Source of the DNA: Yuukianura sp. NJ FZ-2021
Taxonomy: Eukaryota
Reading direction: 5' to 3'
NCBI GenBank assembly: GCA_046563655.1
Contig: CM102285.1
Location: forward strand, 12,028,001-12,092,000
DNA length: 64,000 bases
Notes under the pieces: generated by a model
Database searches by the model: none
Told to the model about the DNA's origin: nothing
Seen by the model: only the letters and a program-made list of their open reading frames with translations
In this document: positions 11,992 through 60,800 of the stretch, one piece after another
Numbering within the stretch: position 1 is the stretch's first letter
Layout of the letters: each line of letters starts with the position of its first letter
Program-made: the position numbers and the translations under genes

Positions 11992-12750
11992 TTTGGAATT
12001 TGGAATTATGTTATTTAAAAAGAGTGATTTTCCTACTAAATTTTTAACTTTTTGGAATTTGGAATTATGTTATTTAAAAAGAGTGATTTTCCTACTAAAT
12101 TTTTAACTTTTTGGAATTTGGAATTATGTTATTTAAAAAGAGTGATTTTCCTACTAAATTTTTAACTTTTTGGAATTTGGAATTATGTTATTTAAAAAGA
12201 GTGATTTTCCTACTAAATTTTTAACTTTTTGGAATTTGGAATTATGTTATTTAAAAAGAGTGATTTTCCTACTAAATTTTTAACTTTTTGGAATTTGGAA
12301 TTATGTTATTTAAAAAGAGTGATTTTCCTACTAAATTTTTAACTTTTTGGAATTTGGAATTATGTTATTTAAAAAGAGTGATTTTCCTACTAAATTTTTA
12401 ACTTTTTGGAATTTGGAATTATGTTATTTAAAAAGAGTGATTTTCCTACTAAATTTTTAACTTTTTGGAATTTGGAATTATGTTATTTAAAAAGAGTGAT
12501 TTTCCTACTAAATTTTTAACTTTTTGGAATTTGGAATTATGTTATTTAAAAAGAGTGATTTTCCTACTAAATTTTTAACTTTTTGGAATTTGGAATTATG
12601 TTATTTAAAAAGAGTGATTTTCCTACTAAATTTTTAACTTTTTGGAATTTGGAATTATGTTATTTAAAAAGAGTGATTTTCCTACTAAATTTTTAACTTT
12701 TTAGAATTTGGAATTATGTTATTTAAAAAGAGTGATTTTCCTACTAAATT
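11992..12750. repeat. Tandem array of a 59-bp AT-rich unit, ~13 copies
   Basis: Unit TTTGGAATTTGGAATTATGTTATTTAAAAAGAGTGATTTTCCTACTAAATTTTTAACTT shifts by one base per 60-nt line; only one substitution seen (~12703). Confidence 0.97.
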
Positions 12751-13146: not shown

Positions 13147-14951
13147 TTAATATCCAAAATCTGACACAAATTCTTCCATTTTTTGAACCAGTTTCCCAAC
13201 TGGTTTGGGTAGAACTGGATGAGTGTAGAAAGAGATGAGGACAGTCTTCTTAAATGTGGTGCAATTGATTCCTAACGTTCCAGTTCGAGCACGGAAGACA
13301 TGTCCAGTGGCCGAAAGACAAGAGTAGATTGTTCCAGACAGAATTACTTTAGAAGAAGTAATGTACTCTCGTTTGGTCATCCCGGTCACGAGCGTCTGAA
13401 TTTCTTTCTTGGTAACTTTGCAACCTCGGCTCACTCCAAGCAGGTCACCATCGAAAGTAGCAAAGCAGCCATAAGTTAAAAGTGGTGATCGAAAGAATTC
13501 AATTTCGAGCTGCTTTCTCAAATCTTCGTTCACTGTAAACAACAAAAAGTTTTGTTAAACAAAACCCAAGCTACTCATACTCAAACTCAAAATGCTTGCA
13601 AGCTCACCAGCTAACCCGAGTTCAGTCCATGTGACTTGATATCGAAACGGCGAATTTGGAGAATTGAGTTGAACTTGTTGATTCATTTTGATTTCAGAAA
13701 GTGCTGGTTGTTTAACAGGCGACAATGGCTTTGTAGGCGGAGTGAGATATACTTCCGCAGGAGAAGATTCCGTGCCAAGGCTGCCATTTCTTGGCGGAGT
13801 GGAAAGCAAGATGTTCCTGACGGGGCTGGAAGCCGCAATTCGGACAGGACTGGATGCTGCGACGGTTCGCACGGGAGTGGAAGGTGCGACATTTCGTACA
13901 GGGCTGAATACGCTGTTTCGTACAGGACTAGAAGGCACGCCATTTTGAGCTGGACTGGAAGGCACGGCCTTTGGAGCAGGACTGGAGTGCACGCCGTTTC
14001 GAACGGGACTTGATGCCTTTTCTTTGATTGGCACAGACTTCTTCCCCGATGACTTTAAAGTCGGAGCAGCAGTAGTTGAACTTGCGGTGATAGTTCCTAA
14101 AAAAATTCAGAATTTAGTTTCAATGCTTCAGAGAATGCTGAACCAAGAGACACGCAAAACTTTTCAAAATCTTACGAGCATGCTGTTCAAAGCGCTGAAT
14201 TTTTTGCATGACGCTGATGGGTGTCGTTTTTGCAGATTCTGACTGACTACGGTAAAGTCCATTACGGCTACGATGCGGTTTCGACCAATCAGAGCCATCA
14301 GAATCTTCATTCGATCCTAAAAATACTTCTTCCTTGTCTACACTTCCAGAAATCGTTTGAACGCTGTGACCATTAGCAGGTCCATTAGTAACCGATCCCT
14401 GTTCGCTATCAAAACTCCAAAGCTGAGCACGTCTTCTGGAGCGTCTTTCGGAGAAACTGCGTTGTAATCGCATCGATTTGGACGGAGGGGACTGTCCCGA
14501 TCCAAGGTCCAATTGCTTCAAGGTACTCAAATCAGCTTCATCCGGGTGATGCAGAAAATGTTGAACGTGTCCTTTCAAATCTTGTGTATCAACATCATTT
14601 GGATCCAGACCTAAAACTGACAAACAGGAAAAAAGTGAATCAGAACTGCAATTCGGGAGTGTTGACAACTTTTTGCATTAAAAACTTGACTTCAGAGAGC
14701 AATAAACTCACCCGCATCGCATATTTTGTTTGCCTCTTGGAGATGACCTTCACGAAAGAGTTTTACAGAAGCAAGGCGTCCAATAATCAGAAATTCAGTT
14801 CTTTTGCTAATAATCAATACAATCATCGATCGATAGACGAATTCAAAAGTTATGCACGAGAAAATGATTTTTTGAAAAAGTTACGAACTTACTTTTCGAA
14901 ATCCGCCAAGTATTTGTCCAGCGGAGACGAGGATAGTTCCGTTCCTGCCAT
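13147..14951 (-). CDS. ~487-aa protein: disordered N-terminal arm with SSPVR repeats plus C-terminal divergent profilin domain
   Basis: Five exons (14893-14951, 14712-14806, 14176-14610, 13608-14096, 13147-13532), all GT-AG and in phase, total 1464 nt. The last exon follows the profilin pattern (FDGDLLGVS..KVTKKEIQTL..VILSGTIYSCLSATGHVFRARTGTLGINCTTFKKTVLISFY..VQKMEEFVSDFGY*). Confidence 0.8.
13700..14015 (-). repeat. Coding minisatellite: ~10-11 aa S/T-P-V-R repeats
   Basis: SSPVRNG, SSPAPK, SSPAQNG, SSPVRNS, FSPVRN, STPVRT, SSPVRI, SSPVRN, STPPRNG, LSPVK. Confidence 0.85.
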
Positions 14952-16776
14952 TTTTTCACGACTAAAATCGATCATAAGGAAGCCAATTGCTCAAAATGTA
15001 GAGCACCTCTGGCCCTTTTGCCTATAAATAAAAATTTGAACATTAAAAAACCAGTATCAAAAAGTGATTAGGAACAATGACTTTGCCACTTCTTCTTCAT
15101 CATCAAACAAATTTAACAACAAAAGTTTCGGCTTATCCTTGATGTCACGCTTGTACTTGTAGTAAAGCCAGAACAATTGGCAATTTCCACAGTTCCAAGT
15201 CAGTACTCTACCAAAAATGCTTGCAAACACTCACCCACTGCTGCTGCTGCTGCTGTTGCACAACAATTACTACCTCAGAGGACAATGATGAGGATGAGAC
15301 CAAGTGTTGACAGAAACACAATGGTGGAATCAGTTTCCCCAATCCAGAACCTACTGTACCAAAGCACAATTCAAAAAAGACTAAAGTTAGTAAGACTAAA
15401 GTTATTCCGTTATGGGAATTGAGCTTAGGTTGAAGCATTTGGCTTTTAGCTTACCTTTTATCAAGTGAGAACAATAGGATGAGCCGTAGGATAGGACGTG
15501 GACGACGCCTCGCTTCGTGGCTCAAGTGAATCTGCGCCAAATTGTCAGTGAACTTGATCTCGCACTGACAGTTAAACTCAAACTACCGTTGTTATGTAAG
15601 GTTGATTTTTAAGTTAAATTAAAGCTATAGCCTAACAGTTTCAGATGTCGATTCTTACTTGAAACGTAACTTATTATGCAAAATTTGAAAAGAACACCAA
15701 TGAACGCATAAAACTTGCAAAAATGAACAGAAAATTTGCAATTTGCAAATAAACTTGGAAAAATGACCAGAAACTTGCAATTTGCAAATAAGTTGTAAAA
15801 TATGCGTCTTCCTGATCTTCCTGAAACTTCTCTACTTTAGTCTTTTCCTGAATATTGACAGAAGCCAACTAACACCTAGGCAGAAGCTTCAACAAATTTC
15901 CAGTTCGCTTTGTAACGGCTCATTATCTTCGACTCATTATTGAAAAAAGCCATTAGAATGGGCGGAGGTTTACATTTTTCGGTAGCGAGTCTAAAGACAG
16001 GAAGTTTTAGTACAACCAAATCTAATCGTGTCCAATTCAATGACATTTACACGAAGGTCAAAGAAGGAATGACTTTGATGACAAAGCGTATTCACGGTTA
16101 TGGTCTAATGCATTTCAAATTTAGTTTAAATGTTAATTGTAATTAAACATGAACACTTTCAAGTTTAATTACAACTACCGTGTAGAGGGAGTTGACCTGT
16201 GAAAATTAGTATGCTGGATTAATGAAATTTCCAGCAAAGACTATAGAAACAATTGGTTTGTGCAAAAAGCAATCGAGATAGTGCCCAAATTATCTCGAGT
16301 GCTTAGCAAAACAATTGTTTTTTTCAAGTGCAATTTCATGGACAAGCGAATCTGTTTTAAAAGAGGTGTAAAGTGTAATTACGCATAAAAAATCAAGCAA
16401 ATACAAAACTATAAAAATGCAAAGGAAAATTACCGTTTCGTTATGGGTGATTTCGTTTTTTGAAACGCTCTAGTAAGATTTTGCAGTTTGAAATGCTTGA
16501 CCTCTTGCGTCAAGGTGAATTAATTTTTGCAAAGTTCACAGAAGTTACACCTTATGGAGCTTCCTTGATGCAAAGATTATTATTGTTATGATAACTTGGC
16601 TGCTTTACACTTTTTACTGCATTTGTTATGAATTTAAGAGTAAATCTTAGATTTATACGCGATCTTCAGAAATAAACGCGTGATTTCTCTGAAAATCCCA
16701 TAAATAATTCCAAATTGAAAAATATACATTGACATTCTGTTAAAAAGTTGGCCAAATGCATTTAGCGTAGATAATC

Positions 16777-24444: not shown

Positions 24445-27400
24445 TTAGGAAATATTGAGAACATCTAGAATTTTGGGGTGACGACGAAGCAAGTCCTTGA
24501 ACTCTTGGAACATGTCCACTGCTGCTCTGTTCCTGTTCAAATATACGAAAATTAGAACAAAACGAAGTGATGTTTTCAAAAAACGTTGATTTTCAAACCT
24601 TCGGAAAAATTTGACAGCAATGTCCATGAGAGGGATAGAATTTGTCCCACATCCGATTTCGTAGAGATGAATACACGTTTCCAGATTGAGTTGACAAGAA
24701 CAGAGTCTTTCAATACACTTGTCCCGGAGACCTCTGATCTCAAGTTCCTCTGCAGCCGAAATCAGTTCCAGAACAAGACCAATGTGGCCTGGACAAATGT
24801 CTTCACCATAAATGAAATTCAGCAGCATCTGAATCGCTTCGACGCTGTAATTCCCAATGTCAATCTCAAGCTTCGATGACATTCCAAAAACTTTTTCAAA
24901 ATGGCTGCTCATTGCTAGACAAACAAAATCAAAGTTAATTAATTCTCACGGAACTGCTAATTTCGGACAAAAAAAAGCACGTATTTCTTACCCGATAGAA
25001 TCACAGCATGAACTGGAGCTCGTAAAATTTTTGTTTTTCGGCCATCAATCACGTTTACAACTGCGTCAGAATCGGCTCCTTGTTGCAATTGTGTCAAAAG
25101 GCGAAGAGTGAAGGGCTCTGTGTTTACTGTCTTGAGGAAAGTCATGTCATACTTGCGATAATGCTGATAGCGGTGGTCAGTAGGTTTCATAACGCGAAAC
25201 GTCGGATGAAGTTGAACAGCTCCAAAGGAAATTCTGACCAGCATTTCACTAACGCCGTCCCAACTGGCCATGACGCTTGGTGTTATAAAAGAATTGACTT
25301 CCCAAAAGTAATGGTTTCCGTCTAGCAGCACTCCTGAGGTAAACATTAAACAAGAGTTCATGACCTTCAGTTTCTATTTTCACAAATGTTCAATTTGCTT
25401 CACCTCTTGTCATATTCGCAGTGATGATTCGTCCTTGAGAATCCAAAAGAGAAACCTTGAGGGTCATGCCAATACTTTCAGCGATCACGGACAAGTAGTC
25501 GCTTCGGCTGATTCCAAGCGACTCACTGTTTCTATCCAGTTCTCGATTCTCTCTCCGGGAATTTTCGCTCAAATCAGAGTTTGAAGTGACACGAAGGCTT
25601 ATGCAATTGGAACTTTTCTTCACCAGTTCGAAAAATCTGAAAGTCAATCAAACAAAAACCAATAAGTTTTAACTTTTTGAACAAAACTTCTAACAGCTAC
25701 ACGTAAGTGAAGCCATTACCAGAATACCAGTTCTGGTAATGGCTTCTTGTAATTTCCAGGACCAAAGTAAAGTTCTTATAGTGGTTTCTGGTAATTTCCA
25801 GAACCAGAAGTCTGGTAATGGCTACAATTCTCACCCCTTCTCAATTTCCAAATTTTGCAAAAGCGAAAACGCTTCATTCCTGCCACTCTTCGGGTCACTC
25901 AGGCAAGCTTCGGCCATGGATTTGCAATAATCTGTTGGAATGACATAGAGGTATCCAGTCCAATTTTCACTTGTCGTCTGGAAATTCAAAATTTCAAAAT
26001 GTGAATCAATTTCGTAGTAATTTCAGTTTCCAAATTAATCAAAAACGAAAAGGTGAAATACTCCAATCAGCTTGACTTCATCTGCTGGAAATTGAACCAA
26101 ATTGAGCACAGTATCGTCAGTGACGGGACAAGTTTTATCGTACAACGAAATCAAAATTCGGTTAAATTCTTCATCAGTTGTAGGACTTGTGATGGCCATC
26201 AAAGCCTTTGAGAATGGAAAGTCGATACATTTGTCTGTGTGTTTCATTCTAAAAACAGAGAAGAAAACAAAATGATAAAAATTACTCAAACTCAAATTAA
26301 TTGAATGCAAGTAATTGAATTAATTGTAATTTAAATAACACTCACATTCGGAAACACTCCACAGCTTTGTCTTTCAAACAAGCAGACTTAAGCATTTCTC
26401 CTAATTTGTAACAAGCTACAAGATGCTTGACATTAGTCACTGGATTGTTGAACATCATAATGATGTCTCGAACGCACTTGTCCTTCAATCCATAAACTTC
26501 CAGCCTATTTCCAACTTCAGCCAAGTTCACAAGAGTTGACAAGTCATTGCAATGAATTTCTCCACTGTAAAGGTAATCGATTAACACAAGAAGCGTAAAA
26601 TGATGAAATCCTTCCAGCACAATCTCCTCCCTTGGCCGAAGATATCCGCCAAGAGAATTGCTTTGAGCTAAAAAAAAATACAAAAACTAAATCAAAATTT
26701 GAAAAGTTTGAAAAATGCTGTTCCAGTATTCTTACCAGCAAGTAAGACGCGATGTGCTGGTAGGATCGTCACATTCTTGCTTTTATCCTGAATTCGAAGT
26801 TTCACATTTGCAAATTTTGTATTGCTGGCCCAACTTCTGAGGAACGAATTGTATTCTTCGTCTCGAACGATTTGGTAAAGTAAATTTCGAAATTTTGAGT
26901 CCAAAGTGTATTGGGCAATTCCATCACTGGAAGGAGCCGTTTCGGGTTGTGACTGCGGTGCCAAACTGTATCCAATGAATTGAATTCGGATCAAAAGGGA
27001 GCCGGTTTTAGTCAGAAGTGATCTTCCAGAAGTCGTCAGAGCATCCAGCGATATGAAGTCTTTGATACGAAAACAGATTCCACCTTTTGATCCACGTTGA
27101 CCTAAGGAACAAAATTTTCGGTAAAAACAAAAAGTAAATTGCAATTTGCAAATTGCAAATCGCTTACAGCATGCCAGTTTTTCTGCTTGCAGAAGATTTC
27201 CGTTGTCATCAACTACTGCAACGCTGAGAGAACTGCCTTTTATGTCACGCAGAATCGGAACAAGGTCTGCTGCTCCTGCTTCACAGTTCAAAACAGACCG
27301 TAAATGCAGCGCTGGAGAATTTCCAAGACGGTAAATAACGAATTTCCTAGCACAACAATAAATTGTGACAATCAGTTATTAAGTTACAGCATTTTTAAAA

Positions 27401-42525: not shown

Positions 42526-45206
42526 ATGGACAATCCAACATTTGAGTCAGGTAATTAACTGTTGAATTTAGAATATTTTCAAAATTTTGAAAAAGATCCT
42601 AGTACCATAAATCAGAGAGTTCAAATTTTGTTCAAATTTTTTTCAGAACAAGTAATTACTGAACGTAAAAATGCAAACAAATTGAACGGTAGTGTACCAA
42701 TATCCGAAATAGTAAAAACTTCAAATGGCCACGCCCTTTTTGCAAATTCCGGGGAACAGAAGGTGGAGCTACAGCGGGAAGTCGGTTTGCTCTCCGGTAT
42801 TGGACTCATCGTAGGCGTCATTATCGGTAACATCAAAAATTTCAAAAACTGAAAAATTTGTTAAAAAATTAAGTTAAAATAAATTTTATTTAAAAAAAAA
42901 TTCAAAACTTACTCTCAAACTGCCGCAGGCAGTGGGATTTTTGTGTCACCCGGAGGATTATTAGCAGAAACTGGATCGGTATGGCTGTCATTGTGCGTAT
43001 GGCTGGCATGTGGGTTCATCTCCACCCTAGGTAAAGCAGAATCAATTGCTTATGAATCAGAATCACTACTATTAATTATGTAATGTTAATTAATGTTAAT
43101 TATTCACTGAAATCACTGGAAATCTTAATTCCCTGCCGATCCTTGCCGATTCCTTTAGGTTCCATTGCGTACATTGAGCTCGGAAGTGTCGTTCCAAGTT
43201 CGGGTGGTGAATATGCTTATATTGGCGCAGCATTCGGTCGACTGCCAGCATTTCTGTACTCCTGGATAGCCACAATTGTGCTTAAACCCTCCGGGGTAGC
43301 CATAGTTTGCTTAACGTTTGCAGAGTACTGCATTTCCCCATTTCTGCCGATGCTGGGATTTGAAGAGGGTACTGGATTCGAAGTACCGGCGCTGAAGTGG
43401 GCATCGATCCTCATATGCTCCGCAACGTTATGTAATACAAAAATAGAATGCTTTTTTGTCAGTTTTCAGTTTAAAGTGAACATGAGGTCAAAGGTCAACA
43501 TTTTCCCGTTTTTCTTTTCAGTACTCGTCACGTACATCAATTGTGTGAGCGTCCGTGTTGCCGTGTTGGTTCAAAACTACTTCACACTTGCTAAACTAGT
43601 TGCTCTTCTAATCATCATAGTCGGTGGAATTTACAATCTCGCGACAGGTATTTCCAGCAGATTACCTTGACCTTTGACCTGCTTCATACCATCTTCAATT
43701 TTCGCGAAATTTTTTGATTTTGATTTTTACAAAATGGTTCCAGGACAGGTTGGTCAATTAAACACGGGTTTTGATGGAAGTAAATGGGAATATGGGCCAT
43801 TAGCTGCCGCTTTCTATTCAGGTTTATGGGCATTTGATGGCTGGTAATTTTTTTAAAATTTGAAAATTTTGTTTCACTTTCCCGAAAAAGTGAAAAGCAT
43901 TTCATAATTTTTCGACTTAAAACTCTAGGAATAGCTTGAATTACATCACAGAAGAAATTAAAAACCCGTACAGGTACGTGTAAATGAAAAACGCTTCCAC
44001 TTTTTAACAAAAAGAAAATTTCAATTTTAAAGTTCAAAAATCATAGAATTTTGATATTTCACAGGAACTTACCAGTGGCAATTTTAGTTGCTCTACCACT
44101 TGTCACCTTTGTGTACTTTTTTGTCAATGTGTCCTACTTCACGGTGGCTACAGTTGACGAAATTATCAATGAGCCAGTAGCTATCGTGAGTTAACATTTC
44201 TCTGAAAAGATTTTCGAAAAAGGTGCTAAAAATTTCGTTTCTGCAAAATTTTAGATTTTCGGGACACGAATGCTAGGTCCCATGGCGTTCTTGATGCCTC
44301 TAGCAGTATCGATTTCAACATTTGGTTCTGCCAATGGAAGTCAGTTTACTGCTGGAAGGTAATTAACGTTTTTCAAAATTTTAATCGTCTAAAGCCAAAG
44401 TGATTTAGTTTTATTCTTTTTTTCGTTAAAGGTTGTGCTATGTTACTGCTCGTGAAGGGCAGTCGATTGAAGCTATAGCCTACATCGATGTCCGACGCAA
44501 AACTCCGTCGTTTGCTATGGTATGAAAAACTTAAAAAAAGGGGTGAAAATTTTTTCACTGAAAATTCGAAATTTCGAACGTTATGTTTGTCACTAAGTAC
44601 CTCTTCACGTTTCGATAGGTTTTCAATGCTGTCCTAGGAATTTCGATGACAGTTTTTCTGGATATCGGAAGTTTGATTCACTTTTTTAGTTTTACGGCGT
44701 GGATTTTCTATGCTGGAACATTTGCATCGCTCATCCGACTTCGATTTACTCGCCCCGATGCTCCACGACCTTTCAAGGTTCAACTAAAACATAATTTCAA
44801 AATTTCTTTTTAAAAAAAATGAAACAAAATGAGTGAATTTTACCGTATCCACTAGGTTCCAATTGTGATACCAGCAGTTCTTCTACTGATCTCAATCTTC
44901 TTGGTAGTTGCTCCAATAGTGGATAATCCACAGGTAGAGTACCTCTTTGCTCTTGGGTTCATCGCTCTTGGATTCTTCGTCTATTGGCCATTTTGCCACT
45001 ACCATTATGTTCTTCCTGGAATGGGTTAGTGTTCACAATTTTCTAAAAAAAAAAACAAAAACGAATTCATAAGGTTCCTTAATCTGCTATGTTTTTCAAT
45101 GAAAATAGGAAACTTTACTTACTGCATGCAAATGTTGTTCAAAATCATTCCACCCGAAATTGACGCAAATGCTGTCAGCGTCTTCACAAATCCGACCAAG
45201 AAGTAA
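42526..45206 (+). CDS. SLC7 light-chain amino acid transporter, paralog 2
   Basis: [93 protein letters not shown]. Confidence 0.92.
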
Positions 45207-50109: not shown

Positions 50110-52299
50110 ATGGCGATCAAGAAAATTTGCTGCATTGGAGCTGGATATGTGGGTGGACCCACCTGTAGTGTAATTGCATACAAATGTCCAGAGATCCAAG
50201 TCACAGTTTGTGATCGTAATCCTGAACGAATTCAACAGTGGAATTCTGAAAAATTGCCAATTTATGAGGTGAGATCAAAACGAGTTTTTTTCAGTCTCAT
50301 TCAATATGATTAACACCGTGGGGAAAAGGTATCACCTTGAGTCAAAATGCTCAAAGTTTCAAAAACAAAGGTCAAAATTTTTGAACTGAACTGTACTGTA
50401 TTAATTGAATATGTTGATCTTTAACTTTTACAATATTTTCTTGTTCATCTGTCTTTTTTTCAGCCTGGGTTGGAAGAAATCGTCCTAAAATGCCGAGGAC
50501 ACAACTTATTCTTCACGACGGAAATGGACATTCCTATCAGAGAAGCGGATCTCATTTTTATTTCTGTAAATACACCAACGAAGACATTTGGCATTGGAAA
50601 GGCAAGTCCCTTGGCCTTGAGCCTGATTTGTGAATTGATTTGATTTGGCCTTGGCCTGTCTAGTCTATGCTTAAAAAATAATTCTACTTGATTCCAATTT
50701 CTGCAGGGAAGAGCAGCAGATTTGAAATTTGTTGAGTCTTGTGCGAGACATATCGCTGAATTGTCAACTGGCAAGAAAATTGTTGTGGAGAAAAGTACAG
50801 TTCCTGTTCGAGCTGCTCAAAGTATTCTACGAATTTTAACTGCCAATACTCATCCGGACGTTGAGTTCCAGGTATGGCTTGCGAAATTGAATTCCATTAT
50901 TAAAGCTTGACAGATCACGAATCGTTTTTTTTTTACATCCAAATCAGGTTCTATCAAATCCAGAATTTCTCAGTGAAGGCACTGCAATCAACGATCTTCT
51001 CAATCCGGATCGCATATTGATCGGAGGTGACTCATCTGCTGCGGGGCAGAATGCTGTCGAGGAATTGTGTACAATTTATTCACACTGGGTAGACCGAAAG
51101 AGAATTTTTACTACGAATACTTGGTCGTCGGAATTGTCAAAGCTCGCCGCCAATGCATTCCTTGCTCAGCGAATTTCCAGTATTAATGCCATGTCAGCCA
51201 TTTGCGAAGCAACTGGTGCGGATGTTTCTGAAGTTAGTCGCGCCATTGGTATGGACACGCGAGTGGGGCCGAAGTTCCTGGAAGCATCCGTGGGATTTGG
51301 TGGCAGTTGCTTCCAAAAGGATTTACTTAATCTGGTTTACATCAGTGAGTGCCTACATCTCCCAGAAGTCGCTGCATATTGGCAAAAGGTGAGATTATTT
51401 TATTTTGTATTTTTGCTGAGTTGTTATTTTTTTTTACGACATTGCGTTAGATATTTTTGTCGAAGAGGAAATATGTCTCAGAGAATTAGGATTGACCTGT
51501 GGTGCTGCCTGCGTTTCCTGTGAATTATAAGTTTCTTGAAAGTATTTTCTTTTTTCATTTCAGGTCATTGACATGAACGAATACCAAAAATCTCGTTTTG
51601 CTGCTCGGATTGTCGAGAGACTTTTCAACACCATTACGGACAAGCACTTGGCAATTTTGGGCTTCTCTTTCAAGAAGAACACAGGAGATACCAGAGAGTC
51701 GCCAGCTATTTATGTTTGCAAATATCTGTTGGAAGAAGGAGCTGTTTTGCACATTTATGATCCCAAGGTTCGCTCTTTTAAGTATTTTCGCAGTTAAAAA
51801 ATTTGGCTCTGACAAATTCAAGAAACGATACAAATTGCTAATATATTCTAATTTATTGCTTTCTCGCAGGTTGAACACAAGCAAATTATGCTCGATTTGA
51901 CATCGCCATTCGTGACGGACAATCCTGAAGAAACCAAGAAACAGATCCTTCTTCATGACGATGCTTATTCAGCTGTAAAAGGGACTCATGCCATTATTAT
52001 TTGCACGGAATGGGACGAATTTGTTGTAAGTTTTTCAAGTGTTTATAGATTCCGATGATTCTGGGATTATGATTTTTATGAAAATCTGTTTAAACTTTTG
52101 ACAGACTCTTGATTACGTGAAAATGTACGGAAGTATGCTCAAGCCAGCTTTTATTTTCGATGGACGACGAATCACCAACTGCGAAGAATTGAAGAAAATT
52201 GGATTCCACGTTGACGTAATTGGTAGAAGGATTAGCAACGGTAATGGAGGACGCAGGGGATCGGAAATTTTGGACAAAGAATTTCAGTCTTCGTCTTAG
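50110..52299 (+). CDS. UGDH: UDP-glucose 6-dehydrogenase (sugarless)
   Basis: [64 protein letters not shown], catalytic [29 protein letters not shown]. Confidence 0.98.
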
Positions 52300-57864: not shown

Positions 57865-60800
57865 CTAACATTTAAGGACATCCAGTTTCTCATACTTTCG
57901 GTCCGTGGCAATAAAATTTGCCAAAGTTTTCTTGACTCTGAGAGCTGTCAGTCTTGCTGCGGCATTTCCGTACCAGCATTCCTTCATCAACTTTGACATC
58001 AGTTTCAGCTCCTGCAAGAAATCACGTTTAAGTTTAGTCTTAATTTCTTCACAAAGTTTAAAAGCACATTCTCGGAACTAGTGTCGCTGTAGGTCGAGAC
58101 AGGATTTTTCAAACACTTGTCGCGTAAAAAGCTATAGTCACCACAAGTCAAAACTTACATCGCACTGCCATCGATTTGGGATGGACGGTCTCTGTTGCTC
58201 CACACAAACGGCCTTTCGCATGTCTTCAATGCTTGGATCTGTTGGGACGACATCGTAGTACGGGAGCTGGAACTCGTCATAGATTCCTAAATGAACACCA
58301 AATCAACAACTTTTAGAAACAACGACACGTTTACTTCAAAATCAATCTATTTTGGCAATGTACAACATCTTCCATACCTCCAACATTGCATCTCCTCGCT
58401 ATCTCCCAGAAACATAGTGCCAAGGCATACACGTCCGCCCTTTTAAATGAGTCAAAGTGCTTCATATTTATGGTTTCATCCAAAACCTAAAACAGAAAAG
58501 AAAACGTGAATAAATTCAGAACTCGCATTTATTGGCAAGCGTCCCCATTCGCCGCGAGAACTGCATGTCGTGTTACATACTTCTGAACGTGACAAGTTTT
58601 AGCAATAAAAGTGCTACTCTATGACTTCTGGAGAAAATGCTGCCAAAATCTAAGCTTACCTCTGGTGGCATGTATCGTTTTGTCCCGCATCGATTGTTGA
58701 TGGGTATGTCCACCTCGTCTGTTTCGGTCGCATAACGCACAGCAAGTCCAAGGTCTCCAATGCAACAGGTACCATTGCTCTTGACCAAAATGTTCTTTGT
58801 TTTCAAATCTCTGTGGGATATGGCCGGTTTTCCTTGAGTCCCAACAATTTCCATGTGCAAATGAGCCAAGCCAGTAGCAATTGAGAAAGCCATTCTGATC
58901 ATCGTCACTGGATCCACAGTATTTCGGCTCAAATAATCAAACAGGGATCCCTTCTCATGGTAGTCTGTCACCAGCCAAAGTTGAGTCCAAGTTCCATTAT
59001 CTAAAAAAAAGAAAGAATTTTCTCAAAATTGAGCTAATTTAGAAGCTGCGAATAATTCTTGTTGGAATATTTAAACGCGAAGGTGGGTAATCACAATCCG
59101 CAACGTTAAGAGCTCTCTAGAAATTGCTAGGAAGCTTGAAATTCTGAATTTTCCTACAAACAGTCTCAAAACCTATTTGTAATACACATTTTTGAAATGA
59201 ATTTTCGTTTTTGAAAATTATAAAACTCACCGTACAAGTAAAAATCAAACCTTTTTATTGCTACAATCAGACGCCACACTAAAATTAATTATTTTCTTCC
59301 CGGGATTTCAAGCCTGAATTACGACCAGAAAAATATAAAAATTTTAATACGGCGTAAGGAAACAGCAAAATTTTTTCTTTCATTTTCTTCAAATTTTTTA
59401 ACGACAATTGAAATTAGTTAACTGAAATTGAGTTGAAAAGCAATGAAACCCGGAGAAAACGCGAAAATAAACAGCGATTTGGTCTTCAACGCCTTTGACC
59501 TTTGGAGTCATTGTGGGTTCAACTTCTCTATGCATCAATGAATCAATAGATTTGAATTTGATTAGCAAAAAAACCTATTCTTAGAAATAAATCATAAAGC
59601 AAAAATACTGTGATTTCTAAAATTGGATCCAGTCAACCGAAACACAGTATTTGTGCCTAGTTAGACTGAATAGACTCCAATTTGAAGTCAAAGGAGAAGC
59701 TGTAACGATCTTAATCAGCTTTACAAACCTTGTCATTTCGAACAAACTTTCGCCTTCTGCCAAAACATTTTGGCAAATCAAACAGTAATTTTTGAACCTA
59801 ACTTTCTTTCCTCAAATGCATTCTCACAAAGAAGAAAGCAAACCTTTGTGCTTTGCTGATTTCTTCTTACCTTTATTGTCCGCTGCAATAAATCCAAGGA
59901 TGTTTTCATGCCTCAGCATCACCGTTTGGTAAATTTCAGCTTCACGAAACCAAGATCTTTCCTCTCGTGACGAGAATATTTTAACGGCGACATTTTCACC
60001 TCTCCAGCGACCGCGCCAAACTTCTCCGTAGCGTCCTTTGCCAACTTCTTCAATCAGTTGCACTTGTCGAGCAATACTTCGCTGCACCAAAAGCGGTAGA
60101 CCTGCAAATTCCAAAAATCCGTAAGATTAGATAACCAAAATTACTAGAAATGTCAACATCTCATAAAATTTCAACCTCATCTAATCAATTCAAGACTAAA
60201 ATTTTAGCTAAAGTTTTCATGTGTTAAAGAAAAGCTTTCGATTTTCTCTAAAAACTATCCTTTGGCACAGAAAACAAAAGACATTCGCTGAGCCAACGTG
60301 ACTTTGACCTTGAACTCTGATCTTTGATTTTTCCTCAGACTCGCGTTTGTGTAAAGTGCGAATCTAGATTTAGCGGGAGATGAGAAGGTTAGGCTAGGAT
60401 TAATTAAATTTGATTTGTTGGCTTTACCAGAACCGGATCCGCTCGTTGTCATTTCAATTAAATCTTTTATGCGTGGCCCCGACGGATCCGTGTCAATCCC
60501 ATTTCCGATGCTCTTGATAAACGGATCTTGTTCGTCCAAGAACTTGTTCACATTCTGTTGTTTCTTTTGCCAGAGGTAGAAGAAGATCAGTACCACGCAG
60601 AGGCAGATAACAATGATCGGACCAGCAATTACGAACGTCATCTCCCAAACACCCAGTTCGTAACTTGATCCATGTTTTTCTGTAAATGATTAGCACAAAG
60701 CAAAGTTCATATTTCAATTTACCCAATTTCGTTCATCAAGTCCTTGAATTCTACAATTTATAATTTTCCCAAAAGTTGGCAGTCTCTCAATCCAATACAA

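Follow-up and report, generated by a model that had tools for sequence, protein, structure and literature searches.

Profilins are usually regarded as small, free, diffusible adaptors which link actin monomers to polyproline tracks, and the question raised by a locus of Yuukianura sp. NJ FZ-2021 is whether a profilin domain can also be made as the tethered end of a much longer protein. The stretch analysed (the window) is the full 64 kb from position 12,028,001 to 12,092,000 of contig CM102285.1 (assembly GCA_046563655.1); gene coordinates are given in window numbering, and the gene in question lies on the minus strand, from 14951 down to 13147. An earlier interpretation made from the letters of the DNA (here the sequence-only reading) had claimed five in-phase exons encoding about 487 amino acids (aa), in which a disordered, phospho-repeat arm of about 360 residues is fused to a tethered, regulated profilin domain that has lost polyproline binding, and it had proposed as checks the Pfam Profilin hidden Markov model (HMM), a structure prediction of the last exon and a search for orthologs with the same fusion. 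We consider it probable that this is a real animal gene, whose product of about 487 aa carries a long arm and, at its C-terminus, a diverged profilin-fold domain, and which acts by the mechanism proposed below.

Profilin identity of the last exon and its join to the arm

The translation of exon 5 (P0001) matched the Pfam Profilin model PF00235 with 46.2 bits against a cut-off of 25 (E 6.3e-12, profile positions 27-125 of 127), and the relative P0003, described below, matched it with 51.1 bits over profile positions 10-127. A phmmer search of the PDB sequences with P0001 found Acanthamoeba profilin IA at E 6.6e-07, all 25 of the 25 PDB matches to the family profile were profilins, and hhalign gave a probability of 99.4% for the family against 14 canonical profilins. 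The AlphaFold2 (AF2) model of the window domain, made from a 35-sequence alignment, reached a mean predicted local distance difference test score (pLDDT) of 91.2 and a predicted template modelling score (pTM) of 0.86, with a profilin-like order of secondary structure (helix 2-13, seven strands, helix 108-123). VIA-align placed it on 1acf, the Acanthamoeba profilin, over 125 of 125 residues (Z 20.1, root-mean-square deviation 1.8 A) without a gap, residues 3..127 of the model lying on residues 1..125 of 1acf, and all of the 50 VIA matches listed were profilins or engineered profilin fusions. For the P0003 model the top Foldseek match was 3d9y_A (E 5.9e-10, template modelling (TM) score 0.89). 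Both the HMM and the predicted fold, then, identify the last exon as a genuine profilin domain, and the first two of the proposed checks came out in favour of the sequence-only reading. No second profilin was found in the 64-kb window. The window protein departs from two textbook features of profilins, the aromatic polyproline patch and stand-alone size (about 125-140 aa), its predicted product having 487 aa and P0003 at least 233 aa in one continuous sequence.

The gene model has five exons with compatible phases and GT..AG introns of 75-101 nucleotides (nt) throughout (Table 1), and predicts a product of 487 aa (489 if an acceptor 6 nt upstream of exon 3 is used), made up of a 360-aa arm and the 127-aa C-terminal domain. 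The claimed intron G/GTGAGC...TTTACAG/TG was located directly before the domain, where it interrupts a Val codon (G/TG), and the profilin exon indeed lacks an ATG near its 5' end, its frame being free of Met over the first 50 residues.

A search for relatives with the single sequence, among proteins of 224-2000 aa (149 candidates), found one, P0003, a protein of 233 aa on a 1185-nt contig with 80% identity over the domain. It runs uninterrupted from M-Q-K-I-K-C-F-E-Q-Q-A-R through a Ser/Pro-rich stretch to A-W-T-E-L-G-A-S-V-N-E-D-L and the domain, and therefore crosses the equivalents of the exon 3/exon 4 and exon 4/exon 5 junctions with the residues predicted by splicing. A single scan of metagenome contigs yielded 14 pattern matches, one of them a true relative, L001 (5161 nt). 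In L001 an exon ending ..I-S-V-M-E-R-I-E-R-F-E-E-H-A-R is followed by a linker exon ending W-S-W-T-E-L-G-G-T and then by the profilin exon. The introns between them are of phase 1; the intron preceding the domain occupies the identical site to its window counterpart, and the intron following H-A-R is displaced by a single codon. In P0004, the gene call corresponding to the L001 profilin exon, intron read-through residues appear at the site of window intron 4. The profilin-arm gene of the window and that of L001 each have a hamartin/TSC1 gene (Pfam PF04388, 57.7 bits) directly upstream, and the exons shared in this syntenic arrangement are 48-81% identical.

The three-way alignment of the window protein, P0003 and L001 has four conserved blocks, namely two short islands in the arm, the FRxQ..WTELG segment before the domain and the whole domain, and the motif [F/I]-R-x-Q..W-T-E-L-G..V-N-x-D-L-R spans the last splice junction. 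The same arm elements (island 1, island 2, a variable Ser/Pro-rich linker and FRxQ..WTELG) are joined to the domain in two or more further organisms. These sequence comparisons give good support to a product in which the 3' end of exon 3, exon 4 and exon 5 are joined, and the third proposed check found the fusion in relatives, in the continuous P0003 and in the matching exons and introns of L001.

We regard it as very unlikely that an internal promoter drives stand-alone expression of the profilin exon, whether in addition to the fusion or in place of it, giving a protein of about 130-155 aa that might start, for example, at a Met lying 26 codons 5' of the exon 4 donor. Canonical profilins do stand alone, the 48 non-spurious matches from the protein library described below are all of 174 aa or less, and exon 4 has one Met (K-M-N-Q-Q) upstream of WTELG. 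However, no conserved internal start was found there, this only Met being missing at the equivalent place in both P0003 and L001; the first 50 residues of exon 5 include no Met; splicing to exon 4 is implied by the phase of the intron and by the segment conserved on both sides of the junction; and the P0003 reading frame extends without interruption well ahead of the domain.

The chance of such open frames was taken from first-order Markov, composition-matched simulations of the 64-kb window, in which about 1.2 frames of at least 160 codons are expected per 64 kb, and single frames are thus not decisive. That a frame of such length turns up about once per simulated window is what speaks for chance frames beside a decaying profilin pseudogene. 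Here, however, three neighbouring frames on the same strand (135, 183 and 185 codons) fit together in phase, and other genomes conserve two of the three, so that chance is not credible. Between the window and L001 the profilin exon has a proportion of nonsynonymous differences (pN) of 0.162, a proportion of synonymous differences (pS) of 0.71 and a ratio of the corresponding rates (dN/dS) of about 0.08, and identity is 45% at third codon positions against 88% at second positions; the profilin domain is under strong purifying selection. The five known members of the family (the window protein, P0003, P0004/L001, P0005 and P0054) are all intact, synteny and intron positions are conserved and the fold is predicted with confidence, and a pseudogene among chance frames is extremely improbable.

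How far the arm extends at its 5' end is a separate matter. Exons 1 and 2 (the first 51 aa) are predicted only and lack comparative support, so that the tethered fusion of the sequence-only reading stands for the 3' end of exon 3, exon 4 and exon 5 and not for these two exons. In one alternative they would be excluded, with a start within exon 3 or with unrecognised 5' exons, giving a fusion of about 300-390 aa. With only 19 and 32 codons, exons 1 and 2 have open frames that carry little statistical weight, and neither these exons nor the first ~110 residues of exon 3 have a counterpart in L001 by sensitive tblastn with arm residues 1-200, in which island 1 was the sole match; P0003 begins only at a Met within island 1, one that the window and L001 have as well. 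This leaves the real N-terminus uncertain, which counts against the gene model as drawn, as does the indirect nature of the support for its splice junctions. On the other side, the protein conservation of island 1 between the window and L001 reaches 18 residues beyond that Met on its N-terminal side, so that coding continues 5' of it; ahead of its first Met the exon 3 frame is open for about 46 codons; and exons 1 and 2 have canonical splice sites of matching phase and an ATG in good context. A shorter arm is somewhat unlikely, and we retain the 487-aa model. A second in-frame ATG (14973-14975, minus strand) in weaker context lies 8 codons upstream of the chosen start and could prepend M-I-D-F-S-R-E-K.

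Table 1. Positions of the exons, introns and arm elements of the profilin-arm gene, and of other gene features, in the 64-kb window
Feature	Position	Strand	Description
Exon 1	14893-14951	minus	ATG 14949-14951, good context aaaATGG; donor AA/GTAAGT, phase 2; predicted only
Exon 2	14712-14806	minus	32 codons; acceptor TTATTAG/C, donor G/GTGAGT; predicted only
Exon 3	14176-14610	minus	Ser-rich arm; alternative acceptor 14616 (6 nt upstream); donor C/GTAAGA, phase 1
Island 1	14177..14263	minus	29 aa, G-L-x-R-S-x-S-E-S-x-K-T-x-x-I-S-V-M-x-x-I-x-R-F-E-x-H-A; includes SVMQKIQRFE
Exon 4	13608-14096	minus	Ser/Pro/Thr-rich basic linker; acceptor TTTTTTTAG/GA, donor G/GTGAGC, phase 1 at both ends
Island 2	14029..14055	minus	K-x-x-G-K-x-S-x-P, from the three-way alignment of window, P0003 and L001
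Tandem array	13839..14010	minus	27-nt (9-aa) units; Tandem Repeats Finder (TRF) period 27 at 13839-13906 and 13916-14010
Pre-domain segment	13609..13647	minus	F-R-x-Q-..-W-T-E-L-G, 3' end of exon 4; conserved in window, P0003 and L001
Exon 5	13147-13532	minus	profilin-fold domain, 127 aa (13150-13530); TAA stop 13147-13149
Intron 4	13533-13607	minus	75 nt, GTGAGC...TTTACAG, phase 1, directly before the profilin domain
Other introns	14097-14175, 14611-14711, 14807-14892	minus	between exons 4/3, 3/2 and 2/1 respectively
Hamartin/TSC1 neighbour	16780 to at least 18999 (L001: 1-2306)	minus	Pfam PF04388
Protein kinase exon	58573-59022		animal gene fragment
UDP-glucose dehydrogenase	50891-51523		animal gene fragment
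Amino-acid permease	43056-43670		animal gene fragment
BTB domain	24445-24945		animal gene fragment

Islands and linker of the arm

Island 1 is 64.5-66.7% identical (tblastn) to positions 3597-3689 of L001, and its final part is also present in P0003, where it holds the first residue of the protein. Its pN between the window and L001 is 0.161, with synonymous sites saturated, and its three-way consensus is G-L-x-R-S-x-S-E-S-x-K-T-x-x-I-S-V-M-x-x-I-x-x-F-E-x-x-A-R. SVMQKIQRFE, which the sequence-only reading had picked out in the arm, was found in the translation and falls within this conserved island; none of the analyses linked it to actin, with whose associated short helices that reading had compared it.

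Between the islands and the domain, the linker varies in length among the relatives (155, 86 and 108 aa). In the window, exon 4 carries an array of nine SSPVRN-like copies, which supply S/T-P-x-K/R sites, the consensus of cyclin-dependent kinases (CDKs) and a site of CDK/mitogen-activated protein kinase (MAPK) type; the array is absent from P0003 and L001 in the three-way alignment and was seen in the window only. The window linker has 9 such sites (shuffle mean 0.68, reached by 0 of 2000 shuffles), that of P0003 has 3 (mean 0.36, reached by 5 of 2000) and that of L001 has 2 (mean 0.40, reached by 116 of 2000). An enrichment common to the linkers of all three sequences is modestly supported by these counts, and on such motif counts the regulation claimed in the sequence-only reading stays putative.

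The arm is basic, with a high content of Ser and Pro, and appears to lack structure over most of its length. Its composition in the window is 15% Ser and 9% Pro with an isoelectric point (pI) of 9.7; residues 1-95 of the AF2 model of P0003 have a pLDDT of 46-55 and lack secondary structure; and a charge-hydropathy plot, which is a crude guide, puts exon 3 on the disordered, low-hydropathy side. At E values up to 10, Pfam gave no family for most of exons 3 and 4, for exon 2, for two sub-pieces of exon 3 or for the 3' end of exon 4.

Four points tell against a disordered arm with shared phosphosites. The L001 count is not significant; the window count is inflated by one tandem repeat, whose sites are not independent; the disorder is taken from the P0003 model, for which the arm alignment is effectively one sequence deep; and exon 4 falls on the 'folded' side of the same crude plot. 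The disordered, phospho-repeat arm of the sequence-only reading is thus upheld in part, by the P0003 model and the exon 3 plot, and not by the exon 4 plot or by the repeat, which the relatives lack.

Ligand surfaces of the domain and a possible mode of action

The polyproline patch, as listed by Behnen et al. 2009 (PMC2694148), consists of Trp3, Tyr6, Trp31, residue 133 and residue 139. By the ungapped structural overlay these first three correspond to Leu4, Gln7 (Ala in P0003 and L001) and Leu31 of the window domain, HMMER also pairing Leu31 with Trp29 of 1prq, and by the HMMER alignment residues 133 and 139 correspond to Phe121 and Tyr127; hhalign in local mode extrapolates to a register matching both the overlay and HMMER. 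Three of the five aromatic positions, those of the N-terminal half of the clamp, are replaced and the two C-terminal ones are kept as Phe and Tyr. The sequence-only reading had described a lost aromatic N-terminal start and DGDLLGVS at the place of the second Trp, and both hold, the latter string being present in the translation and the replacement by Leu, Gln and Leu being given by overlay, HMMER and hhalign together. From the residues alone we infer that polyproline binding has probably been lost.

A different source for the missing aromatic residue has to be considered, namely the conserved Trp of WTELG, which stands 11 residues before the position overlaying Trp3 and might restore part of the site. 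It would have to fold beside the C-terminal helix and rebuild the aromatic groove, so that proline-rich partners were still bound. WTELG does not vary among the window, P0003 and L001, MAFFT and forced global hhalign pair its Trp with Trp3 (at the cost of a 7-11 residue insertion), the segment has a pLDDT of 67-73 and a short helical turn in the P0003 model, unlike the disorder typical of the arm, and the two C-terminal aromatic positions are retained. However, the overlays of both models (window domain and P0003) leave this Trp outside the profilin fold, whose ungapped match begins no earlier than 11 residues downstream of it; hhalign in local mode excludes WTELG; no register puts an aromatic residue at the Tyr6 or Trp31 equivalent; and poly-L-proline is not bound by PFN4, in which these residues are missing (PMC2694148). 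We judge a retained polyproline site unlikely and its loss the more probable.

For actin, the residues given by Behnen et al. as central to binding by PFN1 are Phe59, Arg74, Arg88, Lys90, His119, Lys125 and Tyr128 (PMC2694148); in a hand alignment, itself unreliable, several of these differ from PFN1 in the nearest canonical matches as well. For charge, the family domains have a pI of 9.0-9.4 against a median of 5.7 for the 14 canonical profilins. The mechanism proposed below is weakened by the WTELG Trp just discussed and by the occurrence of a basic pI outside the family as well, values above 9 being found for 3 of the 14.

Mammalian PFN4, a testis protein, offers a functional resemblance only: it has a profilin fold from which the aromatic polyproline patch is largely gone, lacks the actin-site residues as well, and binds phosphoinositides in vitro but neither actin nor poly-L-proline (PMC2694148, PMC8387879). 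As described there it differs in being a short, armless, stand-alone protein, ten residues shorter than PFN1, whereas the window domain keeps the two C-terminal aromatics and has the arm. An extended profilin is also known from Asgard archaea, where heimProfilin (PDB 6YRR) has a disordered N-terminal extension on its profilin fold which was proposed to modulate ligand binding (PMC8410842); such extensions are given there as at most 25 residues long and present in 12 of 256 homologues, with start codons uncertain. The window arm differs from these in its length of about 360 aa, its spread over four exons and its conserved motifs, and no evolutionary link is drawn.

We propose that the domain would no longer ride the polyproline tracks of formins or Ena/VASP, that the arm would position it in cis by means of its two conserved short motifs (the islands), and that multi-site, proline-directed phosphorylation of the linker at its S/T-P-x-K/R sites would tune it. 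As for the ligand of the domain, an even case can be made for acidic phosphoinositides, by analogy with the PFN4 precedent and from the basic pI, and G-actin is put forward more tentatively; the two are not exclusive. A more particular scheme, in which FRxQ..WTELG is a built-in pseudo-ligand whose Trp docks in the degenerate groove and is released or locked by CDK-type phosphorylation, giving a cell-cycle-gated, self-capped profilin, seems improbable to us; if true, it would be a control mode that the literature searched did not turn up.

If the general proposal is right, a conserved paralogue tethered to an arm of motifs and phosphosites, with half of the clamp lost, would mean that a profilin fold can serve anew as a localised module, and it would be a natural separation-of-function variant, like PFN4, bearing on profilin folds uncoupled from formins and Ena/VASP. 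Its practical value is limited for now, the family being known only from a handful of environmental sequences.

Breadth of the family and surroundings of the gene

A library of 1.84 billion representatives contained 50 proteins at E <=0.001, two of them close to the window domain (P0004, 72% identity, and the fragment P0005, 65%). The other 48, less two spurious matches, were exon fragments or ordinary profilins no longer than 174 aa, with 21-44% identity over the matched stretches. In a search for longer relatives of 409-2000 aa with a five-sequence profile, none was found at E <=0.01 among 7999 scored candidates, which is weak evidence. The two spurious matches, P0014 (3717 aa) and P0026 (1027 aa), were rejected as profilin fusions: both are repetitive proteins with no match to the Pfam Profilin model, P0014 having bacterial surface Ig-like repeats, and both had reached E <1e-4 against the profilin exon via short repeats. 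Automated counting of fused profilins should be wary of such matches. In the open-access and bioRxiv literature, searched for long or fused profilins and for arthropod paralogues, no description of a profilin with a long N-terminal arm was found, some queries being swamped by 'profiling'.

In a tree of 24 rows, from which partial and read-through canonical rows had been dropped and in which P0003 was trimmed to its domain region, the five members form a clade with a Shimodaira-Hasegawa-like approximate likelihood ratio test (SH-aLRT) value of 100 and a stem of 2.06 changes per column. The family is, on this alignment, a separate long-branch clade within the profilins, and is a lineage-restricted profilin variant. 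The nearest canonical matches in the library were P0006-P0012 (31-36% identity), which we take to be arthropod-type.

With canonical profilins the window domain shares the fold over all 125 Acanthamoeba residues, its length of 127 aa, the C-terminal aromatics and the final G-Y. It differs from them in carrying the 360-aa arm where they have a free N-terminus, in the change of Trp3, Tyr6 and Trp31 to Leu, Gln and Leu, in its basic pI and separate long-stem clade, and in invariant signatures of the family's own, Y-S-C-L-S-A-T and P-V-L-P-K-P-x-G-K-L-V-Q. The intron position differs too, standing directly before helix 1 here, whereas the read-through residues of the nearest canonical matches point to an intron before V-S-K-E-E.

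Around the gene, an 80-codon frame on the minus strand (15208-15450) lies between the hamartin gene and exon 1; a (CTG)7 run at 15238-15259 encodes poly-Gln within it, it has no Pfam match, and it may be a 5' untranslated region or a small unannotated exon. On the plus strand an open frame of 211 codons (14392-15027) runs antisense to exons 1-3 and their introns, with no Pfam match and no conservation in L001; frames of at least 200 codons are expected about 0.1 times per simulated window, and there are 12 in the real one. Rfam gave no match in the window, whose GC content is about 38%. Together with the short introns of this gene, that GC content suggests a compact invertebrate genome. About 400 nt downstream of the stop codon lies a minisatellite (11992-12750) of 12.9 copies of a 59-nt unit with 99% identity.

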